Both the position numbers and the translations under genes were made by a program. A model generated the notes under the pieces. That model was given only the letters and a program-made list of their open reading frames with translations, made no database searches and was not told where the DNA came from. Below, piece by piece: positions 5,760-32,029 of a stretch of DNA of 64,000 nt. How positions within the stretch are numbered: position 1 is the stretch's first letter; each line of letters begins with the position of its first letter. The stretch comes from Acetivibrio sp. (GTDB lineage: Bacteria > Bacillota > Clostridia > Lachnospirales > Lachnospiraceae), in assembly GCA_036658435.1 (NCBI GenBank), contig JAVXEO010000004.1, positions 120 to 64,119 on the forward strand. Reading direction: 5' to 3'.

Positions 5760-5780
5760 GGTAGTTCTATAGATAATAAA

Positions 5781-5830
5781 AATGGTACTCGTAACGTTTA
5801 AAGCAGAACATTACGAGTACCATTTTCTAT
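5781..5830 (+). terminator. Intrinsic terminator after the PBP gene
   Basis: Perfect 14-bp stem AATGGTACTCGTAA (5781-5794) / TTACGAGTACCATT (5811-5824), followed by TTTTCT. Confidence 0.7.
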
Positions 5831-5831
5831 A

Positions 5832-5853
5832 TTTAAAAAGCAGCCGGCTGCTT
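5832..5853 (-). terminator. Short hairpin terminator after spoVAE (minus-strand sense)
   Basis: AAGCAG-CCGG-CTGCTT hairpin 7 nt after the spoVAE stop. A T-run follows on the minus strand. Confidence 0.5.
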
Positions 5854-5859
5854 GGATTT

Positions 5860-6216
5860 TTATTCTTTAAGCTTTGGATTAAATAAAAGTGAAGCAAGGT
5901 AGCTAAAAATAAGTGCCGCGGAAATTCCTACTGCCGATGCGGTAAATCCTCCTTTAAATATTCCTAAAAATCCCTCTCCATCCACTGCCTTTTTTACGCC
6001 CTGAAACAAGGTATTTCCAAAACCAATCAAAGGAACTCCTGCACCTGCTCCTGCCCAATCTGCAAAGGGCTGATAGATTCCCACTGCACCCAGAAATCCT
6101 CCAAGGCATACCAGTAAAACCATAATTCTTCCAGGCATTAGCTTTGTCTTATCCATTAAAATCTGCACCAGCATACAAATAGTTCCACCAATTAAAAAGG
6201 CTCGAACATAGTCCAT
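5860..6216 (-). CDS. spoVAE: Stage V sporulation protein AE (SpoVAEB-type membrane protein)
   Basis: 118 aa, polytopic. Last gene of the spoVA block, directly after spoVAD with a stop/start overlap. Confidence 0.85.
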   Translation of the reverse strand: MDYVRAFLIGGTICMLVQILMDKTKLMPGRIMVLLVCLGGFLGAVGIYQPFADWAGAGAGVPLIGFGNTLFQGVKKAVDGEGFLGIFKGGFTASAVGISAALIFSYLASLLFNPKLKE

Positions 6217-7250
6217 TACACCACCTCCAAAACAATACCATGAGCGATGGAAGGAACGGAGTTTCCTTCATTAAAACTTACCGTAGACAACAAAGCTCCC
6301 GTTGGTACAAAAAGAACTTTTTTCCATTGTTCTTTTCTCATCTTGTGAAGAATATAGCCCGTCAGAGTAATGGCACTGCATCCACATCCACTTCCTCCGG
6401 AATGGGTATCCTGCTCTTTCGGGTCAAAAATCTCAATGCCGCAGTCCATATGGTTTTCTCTAATATGATATCCTCTTTCCTGTAAAATATCCAATAGAAT
6501 TTCCTGTCCTACCAGTCCTAAATCACCGGTTATAATTTTATCATATTCGGTGGGTCTGCAATTAAAATCAAGAAAATGCTGATAAATTAATTCTGCCGCA
6601 GCGGGTGCCATGCAGGCTCCCATATTCATAGAATCCTTTACTCCATAATCCACTATTTTTCCTGTTGTGACTCCCGTGATGGCAATATTGACTCCTGTCT
6701 TTCTTTTATCTTTACTTATAATAATTGCGCCGCTTCCGGTAACCGTCCAGGTAGCTGCCAGGGGTCTTTGACTTCCATACCCCAGCGGAAAACGAAATTG
6801 CTTTTCAGCACTTCCAAAATGACTGGAGGTAATGGCAATTACCCGGTTGGCATATTCTGCAGCCACCAGCATCGCTCCAAGAGAAGCGGATTCTCCCATT
6901 GTTGAGCAGGCCCCATATAATCCAAATAAAGGGATTTCATAATTTTCCATACCAAACGATGTTGCGATCAATTGCCCTAACAAATCCCCTCCTAAGAGAT
7001 AACGAATATCTTTGGGTTCCAGTTTTGCTTTTTTCAATACCCCTGCAATGGCTCTTGACTGCAAAATACTTTCCCCTTCTTCCCATGTTTTTCCTCCGCA
7101 CATGGGTTCTTCCTCTATTTCGTCAAAGTAGCCTCCTAAAGGCCCCTCCCCTTCCTTTTTTCCGGCAATGGAGCTTTCTTCCAGTATAAAAGGTGGATTT
7201 AAAAATGCAAGACTCTGCTTCCCCACTTGTTTTCCATGAAACATAATCAC
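6216..7250 (-). CDS. spoVAD: Stage V sporulation protein AD (thiolase-fold, DPA-binding)
   Basis: 344 aa. Thiolase/KAS-III-like fold signature (GACSTMGES, GGSGCGCSA) and position between spoVAC and spoVAE. Confidence 0.9.
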   Translation of the reverse strand: MIMFHGKQVGKQSLAFLNPPFILEESSIAGKKEGEGPLGGYFDEIEEEPMCGGKTWEEGESILQSRAIAGVLKKAKLEPKDIRYLLGGDLLGQLIATSFGMENYEIPLFGLYGACSTMGESASLGAMLVAAEYANRVIAITSSHFGSAEKQFRFPLGYGSQRPLAATWTVTGSGAIIISKDKRKTGVNIAITGVTTGKIVDYGVKDSMNMGACMAPAAAELIYQHFLDFNCRPTEYDKIITGDLGLVGQEILLDILQERGYHIRENHMDCGIEIFDPKEQDTHSGGSGCGCSAITLTGYILHKMRKEQWKKVLFVPTGALLSTVSFNEGNSVPSIAHGIVLEVV

Positions 7251-7256
7251 TACCTC

Positions 7257-7745
7257 CTATAAAATTTTTAAAATCCAGTAAATAAGTCCATACACCCAGC
7301 TTGAAAATATTCCATATAAAATAACCGGCCCTGCAATGGTAAATATTTTACATCCGATTCCAAAAATCTGTCCCTCTTTTTTGAACTCTATGGCGGATGC
7401 GGCAACGGAATTGGCAAATCCTGTAATGGGAACAATGGTGCCCGCACCTCCATATTTTGCTATTTTAGGGTAAATTTGAAGTCCGGTAAGGAGTACACTA
7501 AGGAAAACAAGGACAATTATATTATAAGCTCCGGCCCTTTCTTTATTCATTCCCATACTTATAAAGGAATTTATAAAAAACTGCCCCAGCACACAAATAC
7601 TTCCTCCAATCCAAAATGCATGAAACATGTTCCTTAATAAATTATGGGTGGGGGTTATTTCTTTTACATATTCATTATATTTTTCATCTCTTTTGTCTTT
7701 ATTTTTTTCTTTTAATACCTCAGAAATAGTAACCTTATTTTTCAT
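7257..7745 (-). CDS. spoVAC: Stage V sporulation protein AC
   Basis: 162 aa membrane protein. Conserved PITGFANSVAASAIEFKKEG region typical of SpoVAC, plus synteny. Confidence 0.9.
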   Translation of the reverse strand: MKNKVTISEVLKEKNKDKRDEKYNEYVKEITPTHNLLRNMFHAFWIGGSICVLGQFFINSFISMGMNKERAGAYNIIVLVFLSVLLTGLQIYPKIAKYGGAGTIVPITGFANSVAASAIEFKKEGQIFGIGCKIFTIAGPVILYGIFSSWVYGLIYWILKIL

Positions 7746-7777
7746 CTTCCACTCCTATCTATTTTATCTTCCCAGCT

Positions 7778-8185
7778 TTACAGAAATTGATAGAAAGCTC
7801 CCAGTCCCTTTCCTAACGCAATGGAAAGTATAATCCATGCCATTCCATATTTTATTCCCACTCGCTCTGCAAAAACAGGAATGACATCCAAAACTTCTGC
7901 AAGGGACATCGCTAAGCAGCCTACATAAATTCCCGAAAATATTCCATAAGTTACAAGTCCAAGTATCCCCATCTTAGGGTGAAATTCAAAAATCAAAATT
8001 AGATTTCCCAGTGTTCCTCCCCAAATAATAGCATTTTCATAGAGTTTAATATTTTTTACTGTGTTTGTTCGATCGGCAAGTCTTGGAAATACTCCTATTT
8101 TTGTAATAAAAGCAAAAATACCTCCTCCTACTGCAAAGCCACCCGAAATTCCAATCACCACTAATAAAATATATTTAATTAGCAT
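7778..8185 (-). CDS. spoVAB: Stage V sporulation protein AB
   Basis: 135 aa polytopic membrane protein in the spoVAB position. Overlaps the spoVAA stop by 11 nt. Confidence 0.7.
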   Translation of the reverse strand: MLIKYILLVVIGISGGFAVGGGIFAFITKIGVFPRLADRTNTVKNIKLYENAIIWGGTLGNLILIFEFHPKMGILGLVTYGIFSGIYVGCLAMSLAEVLDVIPVFAERVGIKYGMAWIILSIALGKGLGAFYQFL

Positions 8186-8813
8186 CTAACGTTTTCCCTT
8201 CTCTTGCAGCCATTTTTATTTTTGCTTTATTTTTATCCGTTTCAAAAGTTCGCATCTCTATTTGAATCGGTGTTGGATCATCTTGTAAATGTTTTTTGGA
8301 AAAATGATGGAAAAAAATTAAAATGCCCAATGTTAACCCCCCTGAATAACTGATCTCCAATATTTTAAGGGAATTTTCCGGAGTTCCCAGTACCAGTGTG
8401 TAAATTTTTTGGAAAAGTTGCAGAACACTCACATCTGTATTAAATGTCATAATAGAAAAGGCGGCTCCAAAAAATGCCGTTACTATTACAAATGCTGTTT
8501 TTAAATATTCCATCCATTTTTTTTTGCTTTTTGGAATTCGATATTCCACTATAAAATCCGTTTCCCCAAGGTTAACAATTTCAATTCCATGGGCATACCC
8601 ATGAATTTCCTCCATTATCTTAAGTATGGAAACGGCAATGTCCCTGTCCCCTTCTTTTTCTGTTATAAGAATCCGCTTTGATAAATCTTTTATTAAATTT
8701 TTATCCTCTCCATATATTTTTACAACATCCCCCAGTAATATTTTTTTATTACTTACGGTAACACACTGTTCTGCTTTTAGGTAAAGTATTCGAGTATTCA
8801 TACCTGATACCAT
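8175..8813 (-). CDS. spoVAA: Stage V sporulation protein AA
   Basis: 212 aa. Soluble N-terminal domain plus C-terminal TM helices. First gene of the spoVA block downstream of sigF. Confidence 0.7.
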   Translation of the reverse strand: MVSGMNTRILYLKAEQCVTVSNKKILLGDVVKIYGEDKNLIKDLSKRILITEKEGDRDIAVSILKIMEEIHGYAHGIEIVNLGETDFIVEYRIPKSKKKWMEYLKTAFVIVTAFFGAAFSIMTFNTDVSVLQLFQKIYTLVLGTPENSLKILEISYSGGLTLGILIFFHHFSKKHLQDDPTPIQIEMRTFETDKNKAKIKMAAREGKTLDAN

Positions 8814-19750: not shown

Positions 19751-22700
19751 TTATAATATTTTTATAAGTGTTTTCCCTGCGTATTTAATTTTTGCATAAT
19801 ATTTCATTAAAGCCAACATTGTTTTTTCGTCCTGCATTTCCTTTGCTGTAAGCATTAAATTTAACAGTTCAAACATACTTTCATTGGATTCTTCATTCCC
19901 TGCATTTTTCATATCCACACGAACGCTTTCGGTAATAATTTCTTCTTTTCCGTTGTCTTCTGAAATATAGTACTGAAGGACCTCATCTTGAAAAAGGAGA
20001 AATTTGATTACATGAATGCCATAATAGCTGTCTTCCATTGTTTCCGTTATAAAGGATTCCCTGTTTTCCCCGTTCTCTCTAAAGTAGTGAATTTTAACAC
20101 TGTTTTTCGGATTGCATTTATATTCTACAAAGTAATGACTGCGAATTTCTAAAGGAAGTGTCATTCTGTCAGAAAATTTCTTGTAACAGGGAAGAAGAAT
20201 TCCCCGCTCTGTCATTTTCTTTATCTGCTTTTCACAAAATGCAAGTTCTTCCTGGGCAAGTGTTTCCTGTCCACTATAATAAAATAATAAGGCTAAGATA
20301 CAAACCGTACTTTCCTCAAAGCAATTCTCTTTTTTTAATAGTTCAAATATTTCAGGATGAACAATCCGTTCATTTAAAAGGTATTTATATGCGTTGTAGC
20401 ATAAGAAAGCTTTTATAATGGTTGGGTCTCCTCCTTTGTTATAATAGGAGTGAAATACATCATAGGCAGTCATTACATAGCTTTCCCCAAATAACATTTG
20501 ACCAAGAAGTTTTTCTTCTAACCCATAGGTATCTAGCTGAAAGTTTTGTGCACAATTCCACAGCTGCAGAAGCATCTTGGTACTTCCCTCAAAGTGCTCC
20601 ATTAAATAGCAAAGGATTATCTCATTATATTTTCCTTCCTGAAATAAGTAAAAAGCAAGATCTAATTGAAACTTATTTTTTATTTTGTGTCCGTTCTTTT
20701 CTATTTCCTCTGTGCAAAAACGAATCAACTGATTTGTTGGAATTCCATCAAATCCATATTCCCGAAGTGAAAATACTGTTTTTTCATAAAGTTCATGTAT
20801 CATGCAATAAGAAATAGCCTTAGAACGAAAATCCGGTTTCAAAAGATCAAAATCTGCAATAAGAAGCATTTCTTTTAATGCCTCATTTTCCATAGCCTCA
20901 AAGTAATAAGAAATCAATCTTTCATAGCATCTTCCTTTATAATAATTTTTGAATCCCGGCAATAAAATACATCTTCTTTGTACATAAATGGAATACTCGT
21001 TGTTTTTTTGATATTTATCTATTTTCTCAAATAAATTCATCATCAGCATGGGACTATTTTTACATACCTCATAGCACTTTTGTGCCAATCCATGAATATG
21101 CAGCAGTTCCGTTAATTGGAATGAAATACTTTCTCCATAGCGGTTTCCATTTTTATCTATAAATACAATGCTTGGAGATTCTGTAAAAACTTGGATATAT
21201 CCAATTCCATCCTTTAAAAGAGTGTACTCTTCCTTTTCCATTTCTTTATGTGAAACATAAACGCCTATTATATTTTCATTGGTGCAAACCAATTTATGGC
21301 GAAACATAATTTCTGAAAGTGCCGGAGAAATTCCTTCCTTCACCTCTTCTAGTTGAATAAACTCCTGATAAAGTACGGACAGATTTTCATCCATTCTTTC
21401 TTCCTTAATCTGTTCGATTGTAAATTTCTGCATTTTCTTGTGATAAAGAAGATATGTGTTTTTATCTTTATTTTTATTTTTTACTATGTAGGCATAGAGA
21501 TAAGCCTTTTTTTCCCAAGTGAGATTATTATCATATTGGAAAAAAAGAAGAAGGGAGGAGGGAATTTTTTTCTGATAATCTTCCGGCATGGTATATAAAT
21601 AATATTCATATAAATTTTCTATCTTTAAATTTTCTTCTTCCCCCAAGGAAAACCATGGGAAATATTTTGCATCCTTTTTTTTATTTTGAATGAGTATCTT
21701 ACAAATACTAAATAATATTTCTTTACTTTTCGTATGGTCATAAAGAGCAAATAAAGGTTTTAGAATCCAAAAATCAGCCTTTCCTTCCTGTTCTGCTGTA
21801 AAGCAATACAGATCAATTAACTCCTGGTTTAAACAATTCATTCGGATTCCCCAGCTTAAAACCCGTAACAGTACCGGTGCAAAAGCTTCCCTTGCTCTTT
21901 TGTCATTCTGTAAGCAAAGACAGGCTTCATAATAGAGAACCGGACTATTGACTCCTTTTTCTAGTTTGCCTTCAATATCCTTCCACATTTTTTCGCTATT
22001 TCTATCATAATCCCCATCTAAATACAATAAAAACCACAGCATCTGCCATTTATCAAATCCGTTCTCATAATAAGTGCGAATACTGGAAGCTGCCTCTTCA
22101 ATGTATTCCTTCTTTTTGGTATATAAAGCGCGTAAATACAGAAAAGATGAATAAAACAGTATCGATTCTTCTTTCATGGCCTCTTGATTTTCTTCCATAT
22201 CTTTTATAACATCTTCTGCCAGTGGCTGGTGATCCATAATATAATAGTGAAGTTTCAAAAGCTTGTGTTCCCAGAAAGAATGGGTCTCTTTTCCATTTTT
22301 TATAATCGCAGACAGTTCTGCAATATATTGATCTGGTGCAATTTGATTGGTTCTTAAGTTCAAATAATTCTGAAAGAAAATAAGAATCTGTTCTTTCCTT
22401 TTTCGTTGTTCTTCGTGCTTTTTCTTAGGAAGCACCGAAACACTCACCGTTACTTCCATAGTGGAAAATATGGTCTGTATTGTGATTCTGCCAAAATTAT
22501 TTCCCTTTCGTAAAAAAGAAGCATCTACCAAAAATTCCAAATCAAAAGAATTACCAATAAAATCTTTTGTTGTAATTTCCTTCTTTTCTAAAACTAAAAA
22601 TGGAGCATCCCCCTCTATTTGAATCTTTTCATAACCCCAGTTGTCCTTCATTATTGTTATTTTGTCTGCAAAATTAGTGAGACATTTTGTGTATAAAAGT

Positions 22701-23293
22701 TCCGTCCGGTCTACCGTAATATTGATTTTGGACTTTTTTTGTATTGCAATTAAGAATTCTTCGAGTGCAACATTCCTATCCTTTCCTTTGATTAAGCTGG
22801 CATAAAGGGTTTTCAGATGTTCTTCTTTTAAAAATATTCGTCCAAAATCTCTGGTTTCAAAAAGCTGTAGTGCTTCTTCCCAATCACTTTGTGCAAGGTT
22901 AGCAAAATGAAATAAATCCTTGATTTTCCCTAGCGATGTCTGTCCATACGCTTCCGTTACTTCTATTGAAATTGGAAGGTTAACCTCTCCGCAGCAGCTG
23001 ACAATAAAAAGTTTTCCCTTGCTTTTTTCACCGGCTATGGCTTTTTTGGCATCAAAACGGTATTGGATTTCATTGGTTTTTCCGTTAAACATAGGATTTA
23101 TAATATGTAGTTCCGGTAAAGAAGAATAGACAATTCCCTTCATTTTCTTTTCCTGTTCATTTGAAATCCATAAACTTCCCGTAGCCACTGAACCAATTTC
23201 TGCTATAATCGAAATTTGTTCTTCAGACAATAAAATTTCCGGTAATTCATATTCAAAATTTTCCTTTGCCAAACGTTTTATTTTCTCTCTCAC
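19751..23293 (-). CDS. Hypothetical 1180-aa cytoplasmic protein: N-terminal beta-sandwich domains plus long alpha-helical repeat region (operon gene A)
   Basis: Single uninterrupted 3.5-kb frame with GTG start preceded by GGGAGGA at 8 nt. No signal peptide or TM helix. The first ~290 aa have an alternating beta-strand pattern (GSLWISN..., KGKLFIVSCCGEVNLPISIEV, GRITIQTIFSTMEVTVSVSV). The rest is helix-rich and rich in Y/F/L/K/E. I have an unverified memory that similar Clostridia proteins are listed only as DUF families. Confidence 0.75.
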   Translation of the reverse strand: MREKIKRLAKENFEYELPEILLSEEQISIIAEIGSVATGSLWISNEQEKKMKGIVYSSLPELHIINPMFNGKTNEIQYRFDAKKAIAGEKSKGKLFIVSCCGEVNLPISIEVTEAYGQTSLGKIKDLFHFANLAQSDWEEALQLFETRDFGRIFLKEEHLKTLYASLIKGKDRNVALEEFLIAIQKKSKINITVDRTELLYTKCLTNFADKITIMKDNWGYEKIQIEGDAPFLVLEKKEITTKDFIGNSFDLEFLVDASFLRKGNNFGRITIQTIFSTMEVTVSVSVLPKKKHEEQRKRKEQILIFFQNYLNLRTNQIAPDQYIAELSAIIKNGKETHSFWEHKLLKLHYYIMDHQPLAEDVIKDMEENQEAMKEESILFYSSFLYLRALYTKKKEYIEEAASSIRTYYENGFDKWQMLWFLLYLDGDYDRNSEKMWKDIEGKLEKGVNSPVLYYEACLCLQNDKRAREAFAPVLLRVLSWGIRMNCLNQELIDLYCFTAEQEGKADFWILKPLFALYDHTKSKEILFSICKILIQNKKKDAKYFPWFSLGEEENLKIENLYEYYLYTMPEDYQKKIPSSLLLFFQYDNNLTWEKKAYLYAYIVKNKNKDKNTYLLYHKKMQKFTIEQIKEERMDENLSVLYQEFIQLEEVKEGISPALSEIMFRHKLVCTNENIIGVYVSHKEMEKEEYTLLKDGIGYIQVFTESPSIVFIDKNGNRYGESISFQLTELLHIHGLAQKCYEVCKNSPMLMMNLFEKIDKYQKNNEYSIYVQRRCILLPGFKNYYKGRCYERLISYYFEAMENEALKEMLLIADFDLLKPDFRSKAISYCMIHELYEKTVFSLREYGFDGIPTNQLIRFCTEEIEKNGHKIKNKFQLDLAFYLFQEGKYNEIILCYLMEHFEGSTKMLLQLWNCAQNFQLDTYGLEEKLLGQMLFGESYVMTAYDVFHSYYNKGGDPTIIKAFLCYNAYKYLLNERIVHPEIFELLKKENCFEESTVCILALLFYYSGQETLAQEELAFCEKQIKKMTERGILLPCYKKFSDRMTLPLEIRSHYFVEYKCNPKNSVKIHYFRENGENRESFITETMEDSYYGIHVIKFLLFQDEVLQYYISEDNGKEEIITESVRVDMKNAGNEESNESMFELLNLMLTAKEMQDEKTMLALMKYYAKIKYAGKTLIKIL

Positions 23294-23312
23294 TCCGGGG
23301 TTCCTCCCATAT

Positions 23313-23340
23313 TTGCTTTTTTATAAAAAAACGATATAAT
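23313..23340 (+). promoter_or_regulatory. Candidate divergent promoter of the cobD-like gene
   Basis: TTGCTT (23313-23318), 16 nt, TATAAT (23335-23340). It sits back-to-back with the -10 of the opposite promoter. Confidence 0.4.
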
Positions 23341-23344
23341 AGTA

Positions 23345-23374
23345 ATTATAACACTGTAACCCTAGAACATTCAA
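23345..23374 (-). promoter_or_regulatory. Candidate sigma-A promoter of the four-gene operon
   Basis: Minus strand reads TTGAAT (23374-23369), 18 nt, TGT-TATAAT (extended -10, 23350-23345), about 45 nt upstream of the GTG start. Confidence 0.5.
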
Positions 23375-23402
23375 CACTTTAGGAAAGGATTCTACACATA
23401 AA

Positions 23403-24500
23403 ATGATAAAATTAAAAGAACATTTTCATGGAAGTGACCTAGAACAGATAGAAGCTTCCTATGGTATAAAAAAAGAGGACATTGTTAGTTTTGCTGCCAA
23501 TGTAAATCCTCTTGGTATTTCCAGCCAGCTTCGTGAAACCTTGGTCTCTCATATTGATGCCATTACAAGTTATCCGAATCGTGATTACACGCCTTTGCGG
23601 AAGGCCATTGCTGAATATATTCATGCCGATTTTGAAGCCATACTGGTGGGAAATGGTTCCACCGAACTAATCTCTTTGTTTATCCAGTGCCTTCACCCTG
23701 ACAAAACGCTGATTCTCGGTCCAACTTATTCCGAATATGAAAGAGAAGTTTCCATAGAAAATGAAAGTGGAAGCTGTCAATACTATGCATTAAAAGAAGA
23801 GCAGAATTTTGTTCTGGATGTACCGGATTTTCTTACTCACTTAAGTCCAAATTTGGATTTGGTTATTCTTTGTAATCCAAACAACCCTACTTCTTCTTAC
23901 ATTTCTACCTCACAGATGAAACAAATTTTAACCGCTTGCAAAAGAAATCACACCTTTGTATTAGTAGACGAAACCTATGTGGAATTTACCGAAAAAATAG
24001 AGGAAATTTCTTCGGTTTCTTTAACCGGTACCTATGATAATCTGATAGTTTTACGTGGTATCTCTAAGTTTTTTGCAGCTCCCGGTCTTCGTCTTGGTTA
24101 TGCGGTTTGCAACAATCCCGATTTGCTTTTTCTGATCCATGAGAAAAAAAATCCATGGACCATTAATAGTCTGGCTGCTATTGCCGGTGAAATTATGTTT
24201 AAAGACAGCCATTATATTGAGGAAACAAAAGCTCTCATCTTCCAGGAGAGAACCCGTATTGTAGCTTTATTGCAGGAAATTCCCTTTCTTAAGGTATATC
24301 CGCCTAGTGCTAATTTTGTTTTAGTTCGCATCTTAAAAAAAGAAATCACTGCAGAGGATATTTTTGAAACTGCCATAAAAAAAGGATTGATGATACGGGA
24401 TTGTTCCACTTTTCCGTTTTTGGATGAACGTTATTTCCGTTTTTGCTTCATGAAGCCGGAGCAAAATGACAGCCTTCTTTCTGTTTTAAAAGATTTATAA
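23403..24500 (+). CDS. cobD: PLP-dependent class I/II aminotransferase-fold enzyme, threonine-phosphate decarboxylase (CobD)-like
   Basis: 365 aa. HGSD...FAANVNPLG...YPNRDY..., LRGISKFFAAPGLRLGY (PLP lysine) and RDCSTFPFLDERYFRFCF align motif-for-motif with my memory of Salmonella CobD. A HisC-family aminotransferase cannot be excluded. Confidence 0.65.
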   Translation: MIKLKEHFHGSDLEQIEASYGIKKEDIVSFAANVNPLGISSQLRETLVSHIDAITSYPNRDYTPLRKAIAEYIHADFEAILVGNGSTELISLFIQCLHPDKTLILGPTYSEYEREVSIENESGSCQYYALKEEQNFVLDVPDFLTHLSPNLDLVILCNPNNPTSSYISTSQMKQILTACKRNHTFVLVDETYVEFTEKIEEISSVSLTGTYDNLIVLRGISKFFAAPGLRLGYAVCNNPDLLFLIHEKKNPWTINSLAAIAGEIMFKDSHYIEETKALIFQERTRIVALLQEIPFLKVYPPSANFVLVRILKKEITAEDIFETAIKKGLMIRDCSTFPFLDERYFRFCFMKPEQNDSLLSVLKDL

Positions 24501-24507
24501 AGAAAAT

Positions 24508-24552
24508 ACAGAAGGGCTAAGTTACATGAAAAAGGCAGCTTAGCTCTTCTGT
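24508..24552. terminator. Hairpin between convergent cobD-like and nrdD genes
   Basis: 14-bp stem ACAGAAGGGCTAAG / CTTAGCTCTTCTGT with one G-U pair and a 17-nt loop. A T-rich tail (ATTTTCTTT) follows in the minus-strand sense. Confidence 0.55.
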
Positions 24553-24568
24553 AAAATTTTGTTATTTC

Positions 24569-26878
24569 TTATAGTAATTCTACATATTGTTTGATGTTTT
24601 GTACGGATACATGACTGTCTGCTTTTTCTCCATTAAGAACAAGCAATGTGGGTGCCTGTCGAATTCCATACTTTTTGACCATATCTGCATTTTCTTCTGC
24701 TAAGGCTGTTTCATAGGGAACTTTGGCATTATCTAATATATTTTTTGCCGTTTTACAGTTTGGGCAAGTTTTTGTTACAATTAAAATTCGTTTTATTTTC
24801 ACTTGCGTTTTTTCTATATTGTATAGTTTACGTTCTTTAAATTCCTGACTCTTGCCTGCGTTCCAGTTTTGAACCGGTCTGTAATACCCGGTAATACGGC
24901 TATATACCTCTGTTTTTACGCCACATTCCGGACAAATATAGTGTTCTCCCGGAATATAACCATGTTCTTTACAGATGGAATACGTTGGAGAAATGGTATA
25001 ATATGGCAAACGATAGTTTTCTGCAATTTTTTTAACCAAGTTTGCCGCTGCCTTCCAGGAGGGAAGTTTTTCTCCTAAGAAAGCATGAAATACCGTGCCT
25101 GATGTATACAGGGTCTGGAGTTCATCCTGAATATCCAATGCTTCGAAAATATCATCTGTAAAGCCAACCGGAAGATTGGTACTATTGGTATAGTATGGTG
25201 TTTCATTGTCCTCGCAGGCCGTCTTTATATCTGGAAACTGCTCTACATCGTGCTTTGCCAAACGATAGGTTGTCGATTCCGCCGGAGTTGCCTCTAAGTT
25301 GTACAAATCACCATATTTTTCCTGATAATCAGAGAGTCGATCCCTCATATGATTCAATACTTCTTTTGCAAACTTCTGCGTCTTTTCGCTGGTCATATCT
25401 GCCTGTAGCCAGTTTGCATTCAAACCCACTTCATTCATGCCAATTAAACCAATCGTTGAAAAATGATTGTCAAAGCTTCCAAGATAACGTTTCGTATAAG
25501 GGTAGAGCCCCTCATTTAATAATTTTGATATAATCGTTCTCTTTGTCTTTAATGATCTTGCTGAAATATCCATCATTTTATTTAATCGGCGGTAAAAATC
25601 AGCCTCGTTCTCTGAAAGATATGCAATTCTAGGTAAGTTAATGGTAACAACACCAACGGATCCTGTACTTTCACCACTTCCAAAAAAGCCACCGGATTTT
25701 TTTCGAAGTTCCCGAAGATCAAGGCGTAAACGGCAGCACATGCTTCTTACATCGTTTGGTTCCATTTCACTATTAATATAATTAGAAAAATAAGGAGTTC
25801 CATATTTTGATGTCATTTCAAACAACAGCTTATTATTCTCTGTTTCAGACCAGTCAAAATCCTTTGTAATGGAGTAAGTAGGAATGGGGTATTGGAATCC
25901 GCGTCCATTGGCGTCTCCTTCTATCATGGTCTCGATAAACGCTTTGTTTATCATATCCATTTCCTTTTTACAGTCTTTATACTTAAAGTTCATTTCTTTT
26001 CCACCTACAATAGCATTTTGCTCTGCTAAATCACTTGGAATGGTCCAATCCAGCGTAATATTGGAAAAAGGTGCCTGCGTTCCCCAGCGACTTGGAATAT
26101 TTACTCCATAGATAAAGGATTCAATGCAATTTTTCACCTGATTGTAGGAAAGATTATCTTTCTTTACAAAAGGGGCCAGATAGGTATCAAAAGAAGAAAA
26201 TGCCTGGGCTCCTGCCCATTCGTTTTGCATGATACCAAGAAAGTTAACCATTTGGTTGCAGAGGCTGGCTAAGTGTGCTGCCGGTTTTGAAGTAATCTTT
26301 CCGGTAACTCCCCCAAGCCCTTCCTGAATCAATTGTTTTAAGGACCAGCCTGCACAGTATCCTGTAAGCATGGATAAATCATGAATATGTATTTCTGCAT
26401 TTCTATGAGCATTTGCAATTTCTTCATCGTATATTTCAGAAAGCCAGTAATTGGCTGTAATTGCGCCGGAGTTGCTTAATATCAGTCCACCCACAGAATA
26501 GGTGACCGTAGAGTTCTCCTTTACACGCCAATCGGATAAATGTACATAATTATCCACAATTTCCTTATAGTCTAAAATCGTAGACTTCATATTTCTAATT
26601 TTTTCCCTTTGTTTCCGGTATAAGATATAGGCTTTGGCAACGTCGGCATAACCAGACTGTTCCAATATTGCTTCTGCACTATCTTGTATGTCTTCCACAT
26701 GAACCAGTGAATTTTTAATATGTGGTTCATAATGTGCTGTTGTTTTTAAAGCAAGAAGGTCTACAATACTCTGATTGTACTGCTTATTTTGCGCTTCAAA
26801 CGCTTTCATTATTGCTTCGCTGACCTTTTTCAAATCAAATTCTACAATTTTTCCATCTCTTTTTACTACCTGATACAT
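24569..26878 (-). CDS. nrdD: Anaerobic ribonucleoside-triphosphate reductase (class III) with fused C-terminal thioredoxin-fold (CPNC) domain
   Basis: N-terminal ATP-cone (MYQVVKRDGKIVEFDLKKV). C-terminal Zn-ribbon CPECG and glycyl-radical motif RITGYY. About 77 extra residues follow, with a CPNC redox motif. Start moved to ATG 26878 (GGAGG at 9 nt). The track's 11-codon extension lacks an SD. Confidence 0.9.
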   Translation of the reverse strand: MYQVVKRDGKIVEFDLKKVSEAIMKAFEAQNKQYNQSIVDLLALKTTAHYEPHIKNSLVHVEDIQDSAEAILEQSGYADVAKAYILYRKQREKIRNMKSTILDYKEIVDNYVHLSDWRVKENSTVTYSVGGLILSNSGAITANYWLSEIYDEEIANAHRNAEIHIHDLSMLTGYCAGWSLKQLIQEGLGGVTGKITSKPAAHLASLCNQMVNFLGIMQNEWAGAQAFSSFDTYLAPFVKKDNLSYNQVKNCIESFIYGVNIPSRWGTQAPFSNITLDWTIPSDLAEQNAIVGGKEMNFKYKDCKKEMDMINKAFIETMIEGDANGRGFQYPIPTYSITKDFDWSETENNKLLFEMTSKYGTPYFSNYINSEMEPNDVRSMCCRLRLDLRELRKKSGGFFGSGESTGSVGVVTINLPRIAYLSENEADFYRRLNKMMDISARSLKTKRTIISKLLNEGLYPYTKRYLGSFDNHFSTIGLIGMNEVGLNANWLQADMTSEKTQKFAKEVLNHMRDRLSDYQEKYGDLYNLEATPAESTTYRLAKHDVEQFPDIKTACEDNETPYYTNSTNLPVGFTDDIFEALDIQDELQTLYTSGTVFHAFLGEKLPSWKAAANLVKKIAENYRLPYYTISPTYSICKEHGYIPGEHYICPECGVKTEVYSRITGYYRPVQNWNAGKSQEFKERKLYNIEKTQVKIKRILIVTKTCPNCKTAKNILDNAKVPYETALAEENADMVKKYGIRQAPTLLVLNGEKADSHVSVQNIKQYVELL

Positions 26879-27019
26879 ACTGATCATCCTCCAAAAAAAT
26901 CTGTATTTCATGAAAATTTCTACTTATTACAGTAGCATACATACTTTTTATTGTCAACTTAAATACCACATATAGTGCCTGTTTTTTTATTTTCAACTAA
27001 ATGTTGAAAAACGCCCATT

Positions 27020-27718
27020 TTATCTTACTCCTCGTAATTCTACATTTGTGGAACAATCAAGTAGAATTTTTTTGAATTCTTTCATTTTTTTCGGTTCGAT
27101 CTCATGTAAATTGGGGTTTATCAGCATTCCTGAATTTTCAAATGCCTGAAGAAAATATTTTTTTGCTCCCCGAATCCATTTTCCAATTTCTTTAATTTCT
27201 TTTTCTGTATGAAATTCTCTTACCAAAGTTGTTCGAAACTCATATGCAACCTCATTCTCCATTAAAAAAGCAACACTTTTTTCAATACCGGAAATATCGA
27301 AATTGGGAATGCCTATGGTTTCTCCATAACGCTGTTTTGCATTTTTTATGTCCATGGCTACGTAGTCAATTAGATTTTCTTTTACAAGTTCTTTTAATTT
27401 TTCAGGAAACGTACCGTTGGTGTCCAGCTTGACTAAGTATCCCATACTTTTAATCTTATATAGGAAGTCTCCAATCTCTTTTTGCAATAAGGGTTCCCCC
27501 CCTGTAATACACACCCCATCTAAAATGCCCTTTCTTTTTTCCAGAAATGTAAAAATCTCCTGTTCCGAAAGCAAAGGAGTTTCCTCTGTTTTCAAAACAA
27601 GAGATGCATTGTGGCAAAAAGGACATCTCAGATTGCAACTTTTCGTAAATATGGTGCAGCAAACCTTATCCGGATAATCCAATAAGGATGTTTTTTGTAT
27701 GCCTCCAATTTCTATCAT
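27020..27718 (-). CDS. nrdG: Anaerobic ribonucleotide reductase activating protein (radical SAM)
   Basis: 232 aa. CNLRCPFCHN radical-SAM cluster motif and GGEPLL. Lies directly upstream of nrdD. Confidence 0.9.
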   Translation of the reverse strand: MIEIGGIQKTSLLDYPDKVCCTIFTKSCNLRCPFCHNASLVLKTEETPLLSEQEIFTFLEKRKGILDGVCITGGEPLLQKEIGDFLYKIKSMGYLVKLDTNGTFPEKLKELVKENLIDYVAMDIKNAKQRYGETIGIPNFDISGIEKSVAFLMENEVAYEFRTTLVREFHTEKEIKEIGKWIRGAKKYFLQAFENSGMLINPNLHEIEPKKMKEFKKILLDCSTNVELRGVR

Positions 27719-27742
27719 TTTATACCTATACCTCTGCTTGTT

Positions 27743-29404
27743 TTATTTTACGGTAACTTTACATTTTGCCTTTTTTACAGTGTTTCCATCGATTGCAGTC
27801 ACTGTAATGGTGGTGGTTCCTTTGTTCTTTGCTGCCACATTTCCCGAAGAGGAAACCTTTGCCACTTTGGGATTACTGGTATCGTAGACAATACTGGCAT
27901 ATGCATTGGACTCTTTTATGGCTGCTTCTAATCGGAATTTTTCTCCCTTTTTCAAGGTCTTTTTTGTCGTTGATAACTTTATCCCGGTGAGCTTTGGTAC
28001 TACTATTTTTTCTGTATAAACCTGTTCGTTTCCTAAGGAATCTCTTAAATACACGGTATATTCTGTGGTTTCTTTTATGGTTTTTGTTGTTTTATTTTCC
28101 TTCCATTCAAAGGCTTCCCCTTTCTCTCCCTGTTGAAAATAAGAGAGATCCTGGTTGCCTTTTGCATAGCGCAGGGTTAACGTATCCTTCATGGGATTTT
28201 CAATTGTCACATGGCACTTCTTATAATTTGAGTAGGGAAGGTCCGTAACTTCTGTTTGAACCGAAGCCATCATTCCTTTATAGGACATTGCTCCATATAC
28301 ATCAAGAAAAGCCCCATCCCGTACTTTGGAACACAAGGCATCCACTTTCCTGCTTCCGCCTAGTATCATTTTTTTAATTACATTTGCCGGTAAATTTCCA
28401 TAGTAGGAAGCAATCATTGCTGCCGTTCCGGTAACAAATGGAGCCGCCATAGAAGTGCCCGTTTCTTTTACATAGCGGCCCAGGGGAGTATGTTCCTCAT
28501 CTACATAAGCGCTTACAATAGAGGTGCCCGGTGCAGCAATGTCTACGTACTGGTTGCTATAGCAGGAACTGCTGTCCAATTGTCCCGTATTGTTGGTATT
28601 GGCAACCGTTATTATATTGTCCAGCTGATACCCAGCCGGATACACCGGTGACTTAGAAATGTCGTATCCCTGCATATTGGTATCTTTTGTTCCATTCCCT
28701 GCAGCACAAACAAACAGCATCTTTGAATTCTTTATTGCCTTATAAAGAGCTTTGCTGTAATCTGAAGTTCCCAGACTCAGATTGCATATGGAAGCTCCAT
28801 TGTTTTCGGCATATTCAATGGCTTCTATTATCGCAGACATATTGCCTTCCCCTTCACTTCCAAGTGCCTTGCAACTCATAAGTTTTACCTTTGAATAGGC
28901 TGCTACTCCCGCAATTCCAATTCCATTATCTGCTACTGCACCTATAATTCCCGCTACATGGGTTCCATGAATGTCTGCATATAATCCTGTTTTTGAAGAT
29001 TTTTCATAATTGCAGATTTCAGCATTCCCATCTACAAAATTCCAGCCATAATAATCTCCTTCGTATCCGTTTTCATCATTATCCAGAGAACTGTCCATAA
29101 CCTCATCTTCATTCACCCACATATTGGGGGCTAAATCTGCATGCAAATAGTCAATTCCCGTATCTATAATTGCAACTGTAACTTCATTTTCTGCATCCTT
29201 TGATAGCTTCCATGCTTCCTCGATGTTTATATTTTCTATGAGGTCATAATATGCCCACTGTAAATTACTGAATTTATCCTGGGTTACCAAGGTTCTGACC
29301 TTACAGGTTTCTGTTTCCTTTGCCAATGCATGAGGTGTATATCCATTCCACTGAAATAACAAGATCAAGCACAGTAAGCTGCTTACCATTCTTTTTTTGT
29401 TCAT
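27743..29404 (-). CDS. Secreted S8 (subtilisin-family) serine peptidase with C-terminal Big_2-like Ig domain
   Basis: 553 aa with a signal peptide. Catalytic triad motifs AIIDTGID, HGTHVAGIIG, GTSMAAPFVTG. C-terminal YDTSNPKVAKVSSSGNVAAKNKGTTTITVTA is typical of a bacterial Ig-like (group 2) domain. Confidence 0.85.
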   Translation of the reverse strand: MNKKRMVSSLLCLILLFQWNGYTPHALAKETETCKVRTLVTQDKFSNLQWAYYDLIENINIEEAWKLSKDAENEVTVAIIDTGIDYLHADLAPNMWVNEDEVMDSSLDNDENGYEGDYYGWNFVDGNAEICNYEKSSKTGLYADIHGTHVAGIIGAVADNGIGIAGVAAYSKVKLMSCKALGSEGEGNMSAIIEAIEYAENNGASICNLSLGTSDYSKALYKAIKNSKMLFVCAAGNGTKDTNMQGYDISKSPVYPAGYQLDNIITVANTNNTGQLDSSSCYSNQYVDIAAPGTSIVSAYVDEEHTPLGRYVKETGTSMAAPFVTGTAAMIASYYGNLPANVIKKMILGGSRKVDALCSKVRDGAFLDVYGAMSYKGMMASVQTEVTDLPYSNYKKCHVTIENPMKDTLTLRYAKGNQDLSYFQQGEKGEAFEWKENKTTKTIKETTEYTVYLRDSLGNEQVYTEKIVVPKLTGIKLSTTKKTLKKGEKFRLEAAIKESNAYASIVYDTSNPKVAKVSSSGNVAAKNKGTTTITVTAIDGNTVKKAKCKVTVK

Positions 29405-29446
29405 TTTCTACCTCCATTTCCTATCACAAAGATCGGATGGGGAATT

Positions 29447-30304
29447 TTATAATATCCTTAATTCTTTTGCCGACCGTATCCAATACTCTTCCGGTGGATT
29501 TCCTTCTGTATCCAGATTTTTTTCCATAACAGCCAGGTCATATGCTCTTTTCGCACATAACGGCCCCATATTTTCCCCTATTTCCATTGATTTTAAAATA
29601 CACTGTGGCCATACATAAGCATACTGCAAAAGGCTGCTTTTTGCAAACCAGCGATTCACTTTCTCATAAGAAAAGGGAATGCTTAAAAATTGTGCTTTCC
29701 ATTCCTCCCTTTCCCAGGTAAGATATGCCATATTTGCTTTTTTTTGTACACCAATAGCAACCCCAACGGAACCGGGATTGATAATTACTTTTCCGGCATG
29801 TTCATACTGCATCTGCCGGTGCGTATGTCCTGCTACTATATATTTTTCTTTTGATTCTTCCAGATGCTTCTTTGTGTTGTCTTTTCCCGCATCTAAAAGT
29901 TCTCTGGAAGAGGAAATAGAACCATGTACCAGACGAAGAGCTTCTGTACCTTCTATTTTTAAAACCACAGTAGAATCCATGCTTTCGAACCACTCTAAAT
30001 CTTTTTTTGTTAGATTTTCATAGGTGTAGAGAAGGCTTCCCTTATAAGAGGAACATCTCCAGTTCTTTTCATAGCCATCTCGATAATTCAGGAAATATTC
30101 TTCACGATTTCCACGTATCATCCAGGTTGGCATTTGTTTTTTCAACTGATAAATCTTCTCTAAAGTGAGTTGTGGTTCTGGGCAGTCACTGACATAATCT
30201 CCCAGAAACACAACTCCATCTACCGGGTTTTTTTCAATGTAGGCAAGGCAAGCCTCAAAGGCAACGATATTGCTATGAATATCACTCATTACTGCAAGCT
30301 TCAT
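29447..30304 (-). CDS. Metallophosphoesterase family protein
   Basis: 285 aa. MPP motifs MSDIHSN, GDYVSD, GNRE, GHTH. Confidence 0.8.
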   Translation of the reverse strand: MKLAVMSDIHSNIVAFEACLAYIEKNPVDGVVFLGDYVSDCPEPQLTLEKIYQLKKQMPTWMIRGNREEYFLNYRDGYEKNWRCSSYKGSLLYTYENLTKKDLEWFESMDSTVVLKIEGTEALRLVHGSISSSRELLDAGKDNTKKHLEESKEKYIVAGHTHRQMQYEHAGKVIINPGSVGVAIGVQKKANMAYLTWEREEWKAQFLSIPFSYEKVNRWFAKSSLLQYAYVWPQCILKSMEIGENMGPLCAKRAYDLAVMEKNLDTEGNPPEEYWIRSAKELRIL

Positions 30305-30313
30305 TTTAATAAC

Positions 30314-30685
30314 CTACATCATTTTTCCGCATTTATTGCAAAAAGAAGAACCTTGTGAAACGGTGTTTCCACAATCGGAGCAAATGGTGCCACCCTTATT
30401 TTGTGCAATTGCCTCTTTTGCTGCTTCCATTCTTTTTTTTGATTTTTCTATTTTTTCAACACAGGAAGAAAACTCGGATCCTAAAAGTTCCAGGATTTCT
30501 TCGTCCTCTTTACAGCTGCGATAAAGCAATTCCCCCAGCATATGATATTGATTATCAATTTTTCCATTTTCTGATAGTATAATCCCATGCTGTTTTGCTG
30601 AATCGGAGGCATCTTTGGTCATCTTTACAATTTCACTTCCCATATTCGAAAGTTCTTCACCCATTTTATTAAATATATCCACCAT
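30314..30685 (-). CDS. Zinc-ribbon domain protein
   Basis: 123 aa. Helical N-terminus and a C-terminal CSDCG...CNKCG ribbon. Confidence 0.6.
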   Translation of the reverse strand: MVDIFNKMGEELSNMGSEIVKMTKDASDSAKQHGIILSENGKIDNQYHMLGELLYRSCKEDEEILELLGSEFSSCVEKIEKSKKRMEAAKEAIAQNKGGTICSDCGNTVSQGSSFCNKCGKMM

Positions 30686-30713
30686 ACTAACTCCTTTCTA
30701 TGGACAAAATATA

Positions 30714-31997
30714 TTATCCGCGCAAAATAATATCTTCTCTTCCCGGTCCATTGGATACCATTGTAATAGGGAATTCAATTTGTTCTTCTACAAATTCGAT
30801 ATATTTTCTGCAGTTTTCCGGTAGTTCATCATAATTTTTAATTCCACGAATGTCACAATTCCATCCAGGCAATACCTGAATCACCGGTTTTGCCTTTTCC
30901 AAAAGAGTTGTAGTTGGAAAGTCTGTACTTACTTTTCCATTTATTTCATAGCCTGTACATACCGGAATCTCTTTTAAATATCCAAGAACATCTAGTACGG
31001 TAAATGCCACATCGGTTGTTCCCTGCAAGCGGCAGCCATACTTAGAAGCAACGCAGTCAAACCATCCCATACGTCTTGGGCGTCCTGTTGTTGCTCCGTA
31101 CTCTCCTCCATCGCCGCCTCGTCTTCTGAGTTCGTCGGCTTCTTCCCCGAAAATCTCACTGACAAAAGCGCCGCCACCAACTGCACTGGAATACGCTTTA
31201 CACACCGTAATGATTTTTTTAATTTCGTAAGGAGGAATTCCGGCCCCGATGGCTCCATAAGCAGCCAGAGTAGAAGAAGAAGTGACCATTGGATAAATCC
31301 CATGATCCGGATCCTTCAAGGTTCCAAGTTGTCCTTCTAGCAGTATTTCTTTTCCTTCTTTGATTGCCTTCCATAAATAACTGGAAACATCACACACATA
31401 AGGTGCAATCATTTCTCTATATTCAAGGAGCGTACAAAGTAATTCTTCCGGTTTTAATGCCGGTTTGTGATATAGATGTTCCAAAATAACATTTTTTTGT
31501 TCACAAATGCGCTCTGTTTTTTCTTTTAATCCTTCTTCATCAAATAGTTCACTGACCTGGAATCCAATTTTAGCATATTTATCCGAATAAAATGGTGCAA
31601 TTCCTGATTTGGTAGAACCAAATGATTTTCCGCCTAATCTTTCTTCTTCATATTCATCAAAAAGGATATGATATGGCATTACTATCTGTGCCCGGTCTGA
31701 AACCAAAATCTTTGGTGTTGGGACTCCTCTGTCAACAATTGACTGAATTTCCTTGAATAAAACCGGAATATTCAAAGCGACTCCATTACCTATCACGCTG
31801 GTTGTATGATTGTAAAATACCCCTGACGGTAAGGTATGCAATGCAAATTTACCGTAATTGTTTACGATGGTATGTCCTGCATTTGCTCCACCTTGAAATC
31901 TTACTATAATATCAGCTTCCTTTGCCATCATATCGGTGATTTTACCCTTACCTTCATCACCCCAGTTAGCTCCTACCACTGCTTTTACCATATTCAA
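30714..31997 (-). CDS. purA: Adenylosuccinate synthase
   Basis: 427 aa. GDEGKGK P-loop, GNGVA, and TTGRPRRxGW motif. Confidence 0.95.
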   Translation of the reverse strand: MNMVKAVVGANWGDEGKGKITDMMAKEADIIVRFQGGANAGHTIVNNYGKFALHTLPSGVFYNHTTSVIGNGVALNIPVLFKEIQSIVDRGVPTPKILVSDRAQIVMPYHILFDEYEEERLGGKSFGSTKSGIAPFYSDKYAKIGFQVSELFDEEGLKEKTERICEQKNVILEHLYHKPALKPEELLCTLLEYREMIAPYVCDVSSYLWKAIKEGKEILLEGQLGTLKDPDHGIYPMVTSSSTLAAYGAIGAGIPPYEIKKIITVCKAYSSAVGGGAFVSEIFGEEADELRRRGGDGGEYGATTGRPRRMGWFDCVASKYGCRLQGTTDVAFTVLDVLGYLKEIPVCTGYEINGKVSTDFPTTTLLEKAKPVIQVLPGWNCDIRGIKNYDELPENCRKYIEFVEEQIEFPITMVSNGPGREDIILRG

Positions 31998-32029
31998 AAC
32001 CTCCTACATATTCTATATTACCGCAATAT

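Follow-up and report, generated by a model that had tools for sequence, protein, structure and literature searches.

An nrdD gene with a C-terminal extension

This work concerns a gene for a class III ribonucleotide reductase (RNR), NrdD, from Acetivibrio sp. of the family Lachnospiraceae. The gene is found in a 64,000-nucleotide stretch of contig JAVXEO010000004.1 (assembly GCA_036658435.1, positions 120 to 64,119, forward strand). We call this whole stretch the window, and coordinates given without a contig or locus name are window positions. On the evidence of its sequence, the open reading frame (ORF) at 24569–26911 encodes a glycyl-radical RNR, of the double-cysteine finger-loop type, that ends in a thioredoxin-fold domain. 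The layout is listed below. Residue numbers throughout are those of the 780-residue ORF, and model confidence is the predicted local distance difference test (pLDDT) score.

24569–26911, minus strand: nrdD::redoxin ORF, 780 aa, uninterrupted (ORF listing and direct reading of the DNA)
26603–26872, minus strand: ATP-cone, the allosteric activity site, residues 14–103 (PF03477, 66.6 bits, E 3e-18; pLDDT 73–87)
24821–26518, minus strand: NRDD catalytic barrel and glycyl-radical domain, residues 132–697 (PF13597, profile positions 1–562 of 562)
24923–24973, minus strand: zinc-ribbon ligands Cys647-x2-His650 ... Cys660-x2-Cys663 (CxxH...CxxC kept in fused and unfused MCCR relatives)
24884–24898, minus strand: glycyl-radical motif RITGY, residues 672–676, with radical Gly675 (invariant in the alignment with homologues)
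24794–24820, minus strand: linker, residues 698–706, nine residues (pLDDT below 50 for residues 679–704)
24572–24793, minus strand: thioredoxin-fold domain, residues 707–780, 74 aa (Pfam, AlphaFold2, Foldseek and a PDB profile search)
24755–24766, minus strand: redox motif Cys716-Pro717-Asn718-Cys719, CPNC (C, P and C invariant in 81 of 81 tails)
24650–24652, minus strand: Pro754 (QAPT), the cis-proline position of the thioredoxin fold (just before β3; invariant in 81 of 81 tails)

The class III assignment of the initial annotation was upheld by three profiles. The NRDD model matches over its full length (632.7 bits, E 7.8e-190), NF006126 'ribonucleoside triphosphate reductase' scores 1134.9 bits (cut-off 548) and, in an NCBIfam scan of the ORF, TIGR02487 scores 518.9 bits (cut-off 326.35). 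All three scores are above cut-off. The NF006126 profile ends at residue 699. Metal binding by the zinc ribbon is predicted from the known zinc site of the NrdD glycyl-radical domain. The longest ORF opens 11 codons before the likely start (26878–26911). Translation probably begins at Met12 (ATG, 26880–26878), because a GGAGG sequence is found 9 nt upstream and homologues begin MYQV; the protein would then have 769 residues.

It had been stated that NrdD usually ends 20–30 residues past the glycine motif. This holds for 12 unfused relatives and for a second NrdD of the same genome, all of which end 22–27 residues beyond it. Here, the frame continues. Reading the DNA directly, we found no stop codon or frame change between RITGY and CPNC. 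Similarly, no start codon or ribosome-binding context was seen at the junction of the core and redoxin parts. Positions 24569–24802 contain the stop codon and the final 77 codons of the ORF. The encoded C-terminus is ...YSRITGYYRPVQNWNAGKSQEFKERKLYNIEKTQVKIKRILIVTKTCPNCKTAKNILDNAKVPYETALAEENADMVKKYGIRQAPTLLVLNGEKADSHVSVQNIKQYVELL, followed by the stop codon, exactly as first quoted.

The fusion is widespread and its redox site is conserved

We searched protein clusters using residues 560–780 as the query and considered the 120 best clusters. All 120 cover 98–100% of the queried region. Most are full-length proteins of ~770–820 aa and ten are partial. The finger loop reads MCCR in all of them, and the redox motif is CPNC in 119 and CSNC in one. 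Public annotations name the fused proteins simply ribonucleoside triphosphate reductase. We also scanned one genome per species. At least 596 species have a relative, and the 80 best were taken further. The tblastn match reaches residue 775–780 in nearly all 80 (two stop at 759–761) and a blastp match to the tail was obtained in every one.

These data bear on whether the extension is an artefact. A mis-join or missed stop codon is very unlikely, because the same in-frame fusion occurs in 80 of 80 independently assembled species genomes and in 120 of 120 clusters. Neither this nor the lack of a start codon or ribosome-binding context between the two parts fits a redoxin gene that is truly separate and was joined to nrdD by a missed stop, frameshift or mis-join; we give that explanation practically no weight.

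An even sample of 300 genomes from the same class, Clostridia, was used to gauge how common the fusion is. The tail is detectably fused in 46 of these genomes (~15%), and ~10 further genomes have an open frame of fitting length. Carriers include Roseburia lenta, Pseudobutyrivibrio, Pseudoflavonifractor phocaeensis, Faecalibacterium and Anaerostipes, with many Oscillospiraceae, Acutalibacteraceae and Lachnospiraceae among them. Fused NrdDs that are 74–76% identical to those of Clostridia were also seen in several Lentisphaeria/Victivallaceae, which belong to another phylum (L021, L022, L028, L050, L059 and L081). The sequences suggest recent horizontal transfer between phyla, among gut anaerobes.

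Across the 80 relatives, identity to the tail encoded in the window is 31–51%, and identity of the core is 74–86%. Cys716, Pro717, Cys719 and Pro754 are invariant in all 81 tails. Since these redox residues do not vary although the tail otherwise diverges, we conclude that the redox site is under selection. The spacing from Gly675 to Cys716 is 41 residues, the shortest of all; in the 80 relatives it is 51–79 residues (median 62).

The tail was also used to search 1.84 billion representative proteins, yielding 588 matches. Among the best 150, many can be recognised as C-terminal pieces of fused NrdDs, either by QNWNDGK or RITGY remnants ahead of the domain or by a near match to a fused tail (for instance, P0132 to P0020). 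No free-standing gene family of tail homologues was confirmed among the best 150 of the 588 matches. Four short predicted proteins (P0123, P0164, P0209 and P0218) have a thioredoxin reductase (TrxR)-like FAD-binding N-terminus (GGGPAG...) joined directly to an NrdD-type CPNC domain. These may be real fusions of a TrxR fragment to a redoxin, or chimeric or frameshifted gene calls at an nrdD–trxB junction.

The tail adopts a thioredoxin fold and belongs to no classical redoxin family

Scanned alone, the tail matches Glutaredoxin (PF00462, 30.3 bits, cut-off 22.9) and Thioredoxin_3 (PF13192, 28.8 bits, cut-off 24.8) over residues 708–762. With NCBIfam models there were sub-threshold matches only, to YruB-type glutaredoxin-like proteins, NrdH, thioredoxin and MJ0307-type redoxins. 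We built an AlphaFold2 model of the tail from an alignment of 81 translated tails (that of the window and those of the 80 species genomes). The model has a pLDDT of 96.2 and a predicted template modelling score (pTM) of 0.84. Its elements are β1 (707–712), α1 (717–728), β2 (734–737), α2 (742–747), β3 (755–760), β4 (763–768) and α3 (770–779), that is, β-α-β-α-β-β-α. In Foldseek the model matched thioredoxins, a-domains of PDI and the thioredoxin-like domains of KaiB and SasA, with probability 1.00 and TM scores of 0.70–0.78. A profile of the 81 tails matched 194 PDB sequences (thioredoxin, glutaredoxin, NrdH or PDO chains). The best of these were the Aquifex and Pyrococcus glutaredoxin-like protein disulfide oxidoreductases, an MJ0307-type small thioredoxin, thioredoxins and NrdH. 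The full-length model is weak (pLDDT 67), with only 37 close homologues. Even so, residues 707–779 score 84–91 and have the same order of elements.

The initial annotation had described the tail as a small thioredoxin- or glutaredoxin-like protein, with its CxxC at the start of the first helix, APT as a candidate cis-proline site and an NrdH-like character. The fold is confirmed by the above. The tail-only model puts CxxC at the start of helix 1, and the proline of APT is Pro754, whose cis conformation is predicted from its position. Conversely, NrdH-like does not hold as family membership: TIGR02194 scores 22.2 bits, far below its cut-off of 85.75, and neither CVQC nor WSGFRP is present. Two other families were tried and rejected. 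For classical thioredoxin, TIGR01068 scores 18.9 (cut-off 96.8) and PF00085 scores 20.3 (cut-off 23.5), and there is no WCGPC. Moreover, unlike the classical thioredoxin, which has five strands and an additional N-terminal β-α unit, the tail has just four strands and three helices in its 74 residues. Glutathione-dependent glutaredoxins have a CPYC-type site, a TVP context for the cis-proline and a GG-x-dD glutathione-binding motif. The tail reads CPNC, QAPT and NGEKAD, and TIGR02181 scores 18.8 bits (cut-off 90).

The active site has both thiol-type and formate-type residues

The core was aligned with NrdD of T. maritima (4COI/4U3E) and P. copri (8P23). The following active site features were located.

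26354–26356, minus strand: Cys186, the conserved β-A cysteine, matching Cys125 of T. maritima NrdD (T. maritima alignment; invariant among homologues)
25730–25741, minus strand: finger loop Met391-Cys392-Cys393-Arg394, MCCR (double-cysteine class as defined in PMC9669993)
25292–25294, minus strand: Glu540 in NLEATPAE, equivalent to T. maritima Glu495 (T. maritima alignment; proposed proton donor of thiol-type NrdD)

Similarity to T. maritima NrdD is low (135 bits over residues 163–698). In the alignment, M391-C392-C393-R394 pairs with S328-C-C-R331. Glu540 is invariant among the aligned homologues, and the formate-type P. copri NrdD has Leu at this position.

According to Burnim et al. (PMC9669993), class III enzymes with the finger loop MGCR have one cysteine there and use formate as reductant. 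The double-cysteine enzyme of N. bacilliformis, with the finger loop SCCR, uses thioredoxin. MCCR enzymes are the majority of the double-cysteine class; they retain Met, and either reductant is possible in principle (PMC9669993). By sequence, the enzyme described here, with MCCR and Glu, falls into the last group. Of the features of the thioredoxin-dependent type, NrdD2, it has the two adjacent finger-loop cysteines, the β-A Cys186 and Glu540. The clades that Burnim et al. (2022) regard as strictly thioredoxin-dependent have lost the finger-loop Met, and here Met391 is present. Hence, a reading of these positions, proposed in the initial annotation as a way to tell thiol from formate chemistry, gives a mixed answer: Cys186, MCCR and Glu540 are thiol-type and the formate-type Met391 is kept alongside them. 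The 12 unfused MCCR relatives are 47–52% identical to the fused clade, have the same C186, MCCR and E540, and end 25–27 residues past the glycine.

A thioredoxin reductase-like gene accompanies the fused nrdD in most relatives

The gene directly upstream of nrdD encodes the putative activating enzyme.

27020–27718, minus strand: nrdG2-type activase, radical SAM (PF04055; TIGR02495, 215.2 bits, cut-off 131.15)

An nrdG2 homologue is found upstream of the fused nrdD in 56 of the 80 related loci. Downstream, the neighbour in the window is a convergent gene for a CobD/HisC-like aminotransferase. In 51 of the 80 relatives, a gene for a TrxR-like protein of ~300 aa is found directly 3' of the fused nrdD and in the same orientation (L065:6389-7291 and L005:6381-7292, for instance). 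The distance is at most about 190 nt in 50 of these 51 loci, usually 0–100 nt, and 466 nt in the other. Loci without trxB are mostly from Lachnospiraceae, as is the window. We found neither a redoxin gene nor trxB beside the unfused MCCR nrdD in any of the 12 loci. Their gene order, nrdD then nrdG2, also differs from that of the fused loci.

All 51 TrxR-like proteins encoded in the operons keep the redox motif C-A-[VTIL]-C. The HRR motif of thioredoxin reductases binds the 2'-phosphate of NADPH. It is present in 13 of the 51 proteins; 37 have QNL or QDL instead, and one has ECM. Loss of HRR marks thioredoxin reductases that do not use NADPH (PMC5627308). We considered whether the proteins without HRR are ferredoxin-dependent FFTR enzymes of the Clostridium type. 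This was not supported: the closest solved structures are ordinary thioredoxin reductases (261 bits), and FFTR (6GNA) scores 127 bits.

The 37 QNL or QDL proteins are the reason for a tentative proposal, which we consider possible though not probable. The CPNC domain and the operon-encoded flavoprotein might together supply electrons to the class III RNR of anaerobic gut bacteria as a self-contained line, independent of both NADPH and formate. The driver could be ferredoxin, NADH or another donor, and the system could be a bacterial counterpart of the archaeal NrdD3, NrdH and ferredoxin-disulfide-reductase system. The genome studied here would then have a pared-down form of it, which has a minimal linker, lacks a dedicated reductase and draws on the housekeeping TrxB.

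The conserved TrxR motif also bears on a different role, in which the domain acts as a redox sensor or as a cap for protection and would supply no electrons for catalysis. Either CPNC, once oxidised, would report oxygen or disulfide stress and shut the enzyme down, or the domain would shield the glycyl radical. Such a role suits a domain tethered beside the oxygen-sensitive glycyl-radical domain, and thioredoxin folds do act as non-catalytic modules elsewhere; KaiB and SasA are among the Foldseek matches. However, one cysteine is often lost in such sensors, whereas both cysteines and the cis-proline are invariant in the 81 tails, and a TrxR whose redox motif is intact, encoded in the same operon, speaks for continuous redox cycling. 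We therefore consider a sensor or cap highly improbable.

In most genomes that carry it, the fused enzyme is the sole class III RNR

The genome encodes a second NrdD of 708 aa at C2:6689-8812 (L001 1495-3621, minus strand). This protein has the finger loop MGCR, Tyr at the position of Glu540 and a CxxC...CxxC zinc ribbon. It has no redoxin tail and ends 22 residues past the glycine. Its operon continues with genes for a classical NrdG of 174 aa (L001 899-1423) and a dUTPase (L001 450-914). Judged by these signatures, the organism carries one formate-type and one thiol-signature class III enzyme. No class I or II RNR was found in the genome. There is a single bona fide TrxB (contig C41, 377 bits, cut-off 343), one thioredoxin (contig C12) and, on contig C5, pyruvate formate-lyase (PFL). 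A PFL-like glycyl-radical enzyme is also encoded in the window, on the minus strand at ~55665–57296 (C4:55784-57415), by an 803-aa open frame. It scores 216 bits with the PFL model, far under the cut-off, and so is not PFL itself.

We detected an NrdD of the MGCR type in just 9 of the 46 fusion-bearing genomes. Thus, the fused enzyme is normally the sole class III RNR, which argues that it is a working RNR and not an accessory. Among the nine sampled genomes of the family to which the window belongs, MGCR and fused types are mutually exclusive; the genome studied here is the sole one with both. In an uncultured Clostridia genome (L008), a fused MCCR NrdD (791 aa, 4001-6376) is followed in tandem by an MGCR NrdD (720 aa, 6583-8745). 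About one sampled Clostridia species in six has the architecture, usually as its only class III RNR. Hence, the fused enzyme is probably a main route to deoxyribonucleoside triphosphates in many human and animal gut anaerobes.

A model for electron delivery by the tail

We lean towards the view that the tail serves as a disulfide reductant on a tether, returning the active site to its reduced state. Four observations lead us to it: the active site signature, the invariant redox motif, the linkage to trxB, and the precedent of a glutaredoxin fused to NrdB in Facklamia, described below. The catalytic cycle would run as follows. NrdG2, encoded directly upstream, would install the radical on Gly675, and a thiyl radical on Cys393 or Cys392 would start catalysis. 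Cys186 and the second finger-loop cysteine would then give two electrons, with Glu540 as the proton donor. An active-site disulfide would remain, as in the thioredoxin-dependent NrdD2 enzymes. The tethered CPNC would reduce this Cys186–Cys392/393 disulfide, in its own subunit or in the other subunit of the dimer, by thiol-disulfide exchange with Cys716/Cys719. In doing so, it would take the role of free thioredoxin, or that of the C-terminal cysteine-pair tail of class I/II enzymes. Finally, a low-molecular-weight thioredoxin reductase would recharge CPNC: in most relatives the one encoded in the operon, and in the genome studied here the housekeeping TrxB. We infer every electron-transfer step in this scheme from sequence.

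The initial annotation had argued that the enzyme would depend on thiols and that the attached domain would provide the reductant in cis. Cys186, MCCR and Glu540, the TrxR gene in 51 of 80 relatives and conservation of the redox motif lend support to this proposal. Several observations weigh against it. Met391, a residue used in formate chemistry, is invariant in the fused clade. In E. coli NrdD, the finger-loop Met forms a thiosulfuranyl radical during formate-dependent reduction (PMC9669993). PFL, a source of formate, is encoded here and in 31 of the 46 fusion-bearing genomes, compared with 179 of the 300 genomes overall; these counts also led us to reject the fusion as a marker of genomes without formate production. 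At the locus in the window, trxB is not adjacent to the fused nrdD. The linker, the shortest seen, limits the reach of the domain, and the full-length model is too weak to show where the tail lies with respect to the barrel. No biochemical assay of any member of the fused clade was found in the literature searched.

The same persistence of Met391 and PFL suits a division of labour in which formate is the turnover reductant, through Met391/Cys186 thiosulfuranyl chemistry as in E. coli NrdD, and the redoxin serves for maintenance. Its task would be to keep the cysteines of the zinc ribbon and active site reduced so that NrdG2 can activate, or reactivate, the enzyme after oxidative insult. The tail is indeed tethered next to the zinc ribbon and the glycyl-radical domain, and an activating role of thioredoxin for the class III RNR of E. 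coli is cited in PMC4390871. However, Glu540 and the second finger-loop cysteine, hallmarks of formate-independent reduction, are invariant, and the formate-type paralogue has neither. In addition, the operon-encoded TrxR of 51 relatives suggests a stoichiometric flux of electrons rather than occasional repair. On balance, we consider maintenance alongside formate unlikely and prefer the tethered reductant.

Comparison with known systems

To our knowledge, NrdD of Neisseria bacilliformis is the only class III enzyme shown to use thioredoxin. It is grouped with T. maritima NrdD (4COI/4U3E) as thioredoxin-dependent NrdD2 (PMC9669993, PMC4390871, PMC11226230). These enzymes and the fused enzyme have in common the glycyl-radical core, the β-A cysteine, the double-cysteine finger loop and the active-site Glu. 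In both, the expected reductant is a thioredoxin-fold protein recharged by TrxR. They differ in that the reductant is free there and covalently attached here, and in the finger loop (SCCR there, MCCR here). Here, moreover, the activase is of the NrdG2 type and is encoded upstream.

That such a fusion exists was already known, from one entry in a supplementary table. Table S1 of Rozman Grinberg et al. (2018; PMC6187632) lists a 'Glutaredoxin:NrdD' of Lachnospiraceae bacterium TWA4 (WP_082039398.1, subclass NrdDd). Like the gene described here, it combines a class III catalytic subunit with a glutaredoxin-family domain in a Lachnospiraceae genome. Compared by its table description only, it is probably a member of the same clade. 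Unlike the present account, the paper has a table entry alone and says nothing on the order of the domains, their distribution, the operon context or biochemistry. No description of the breadth, operon partner or function of the fusion was found in the literature searched.

A functional precedent comes from class I. In Facklamia ignava, a Grx::ATP-cone::NrdB protein is reduced by its own fused glutaredoxin (PMC6187632). There, too, an RNR component carries a fused redoxin, which acts as the reductant of that RNR. In contrast to the class III fusion, it is N-terminal, is attached to the radical-generating subunit and is of the glutathione-dependent GrxC type. It acts on the C-terminal cysteine pair of NrdA, a pair that class III enzymes do not have.

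Wei and co-workers are said to have described, in 2015, a Methanosarcina barkeri NrdD3 that works with a separate NrdH-like redoxin and a ferredoxin:disulfide reductase. In common with many fused loci, this is a class III RNR with a dedicated small redoxin and a reductase encoded nearby. Unlike them, the redoxin is separate, the finger loop is QCCR/A without the Met or Glu, and the reductase is an Fe-S protein rather than a flavoprotein TrxR. M. barkeri NrdD3 is named in Table 1 of PMC9176816.

The tail also resembles an element of other RNR classes. We note that class I/II enzymes have a flexible C-terminal dithiol whose proposed function is to carry electrons to the active site. Both are C-terminal, flexibly tethered dithiols. 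The class I/II element is a disordered tail or zinc finger whose two cysteines need free thioredoxin or glutaredoxin, whereas the element described here is a complete folded redoxin.

In thiol-dependent class III RNRs, the active-site disulfide has to be re-reduced without a C-terminal cysteine tail of the class I/II type. With its attached redoxin, the fused enzyme is a defined 1:1 system for trapping a mixed disulfide between redoxin and RNR, and for cryo-electron microscopy. It is equally suited to asking whether enzymes with MCCR and Glu use thiols, formate or both. The minimal linker, the missing partner reductase gene and the co-resident formate-type NrdD are specific to the window. The tether is unusually short, and the formate-type enzyme permits a comparison within one genome.

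The region upstream of nrdD

An Rfam scan of positions 20000–32000 detected no riboswitch or other RNA family. The NrdR-box consensus ACACWATATATWGTGT was not found in the nrdG–nrdD spacer (26881–27019) when up to three mismatches were allowed. The spacer contains a TTGACA hexamer and the sequence CACTATATGTG, which is too short for an NrdR box. NrdR itself is encoded on contig C30.

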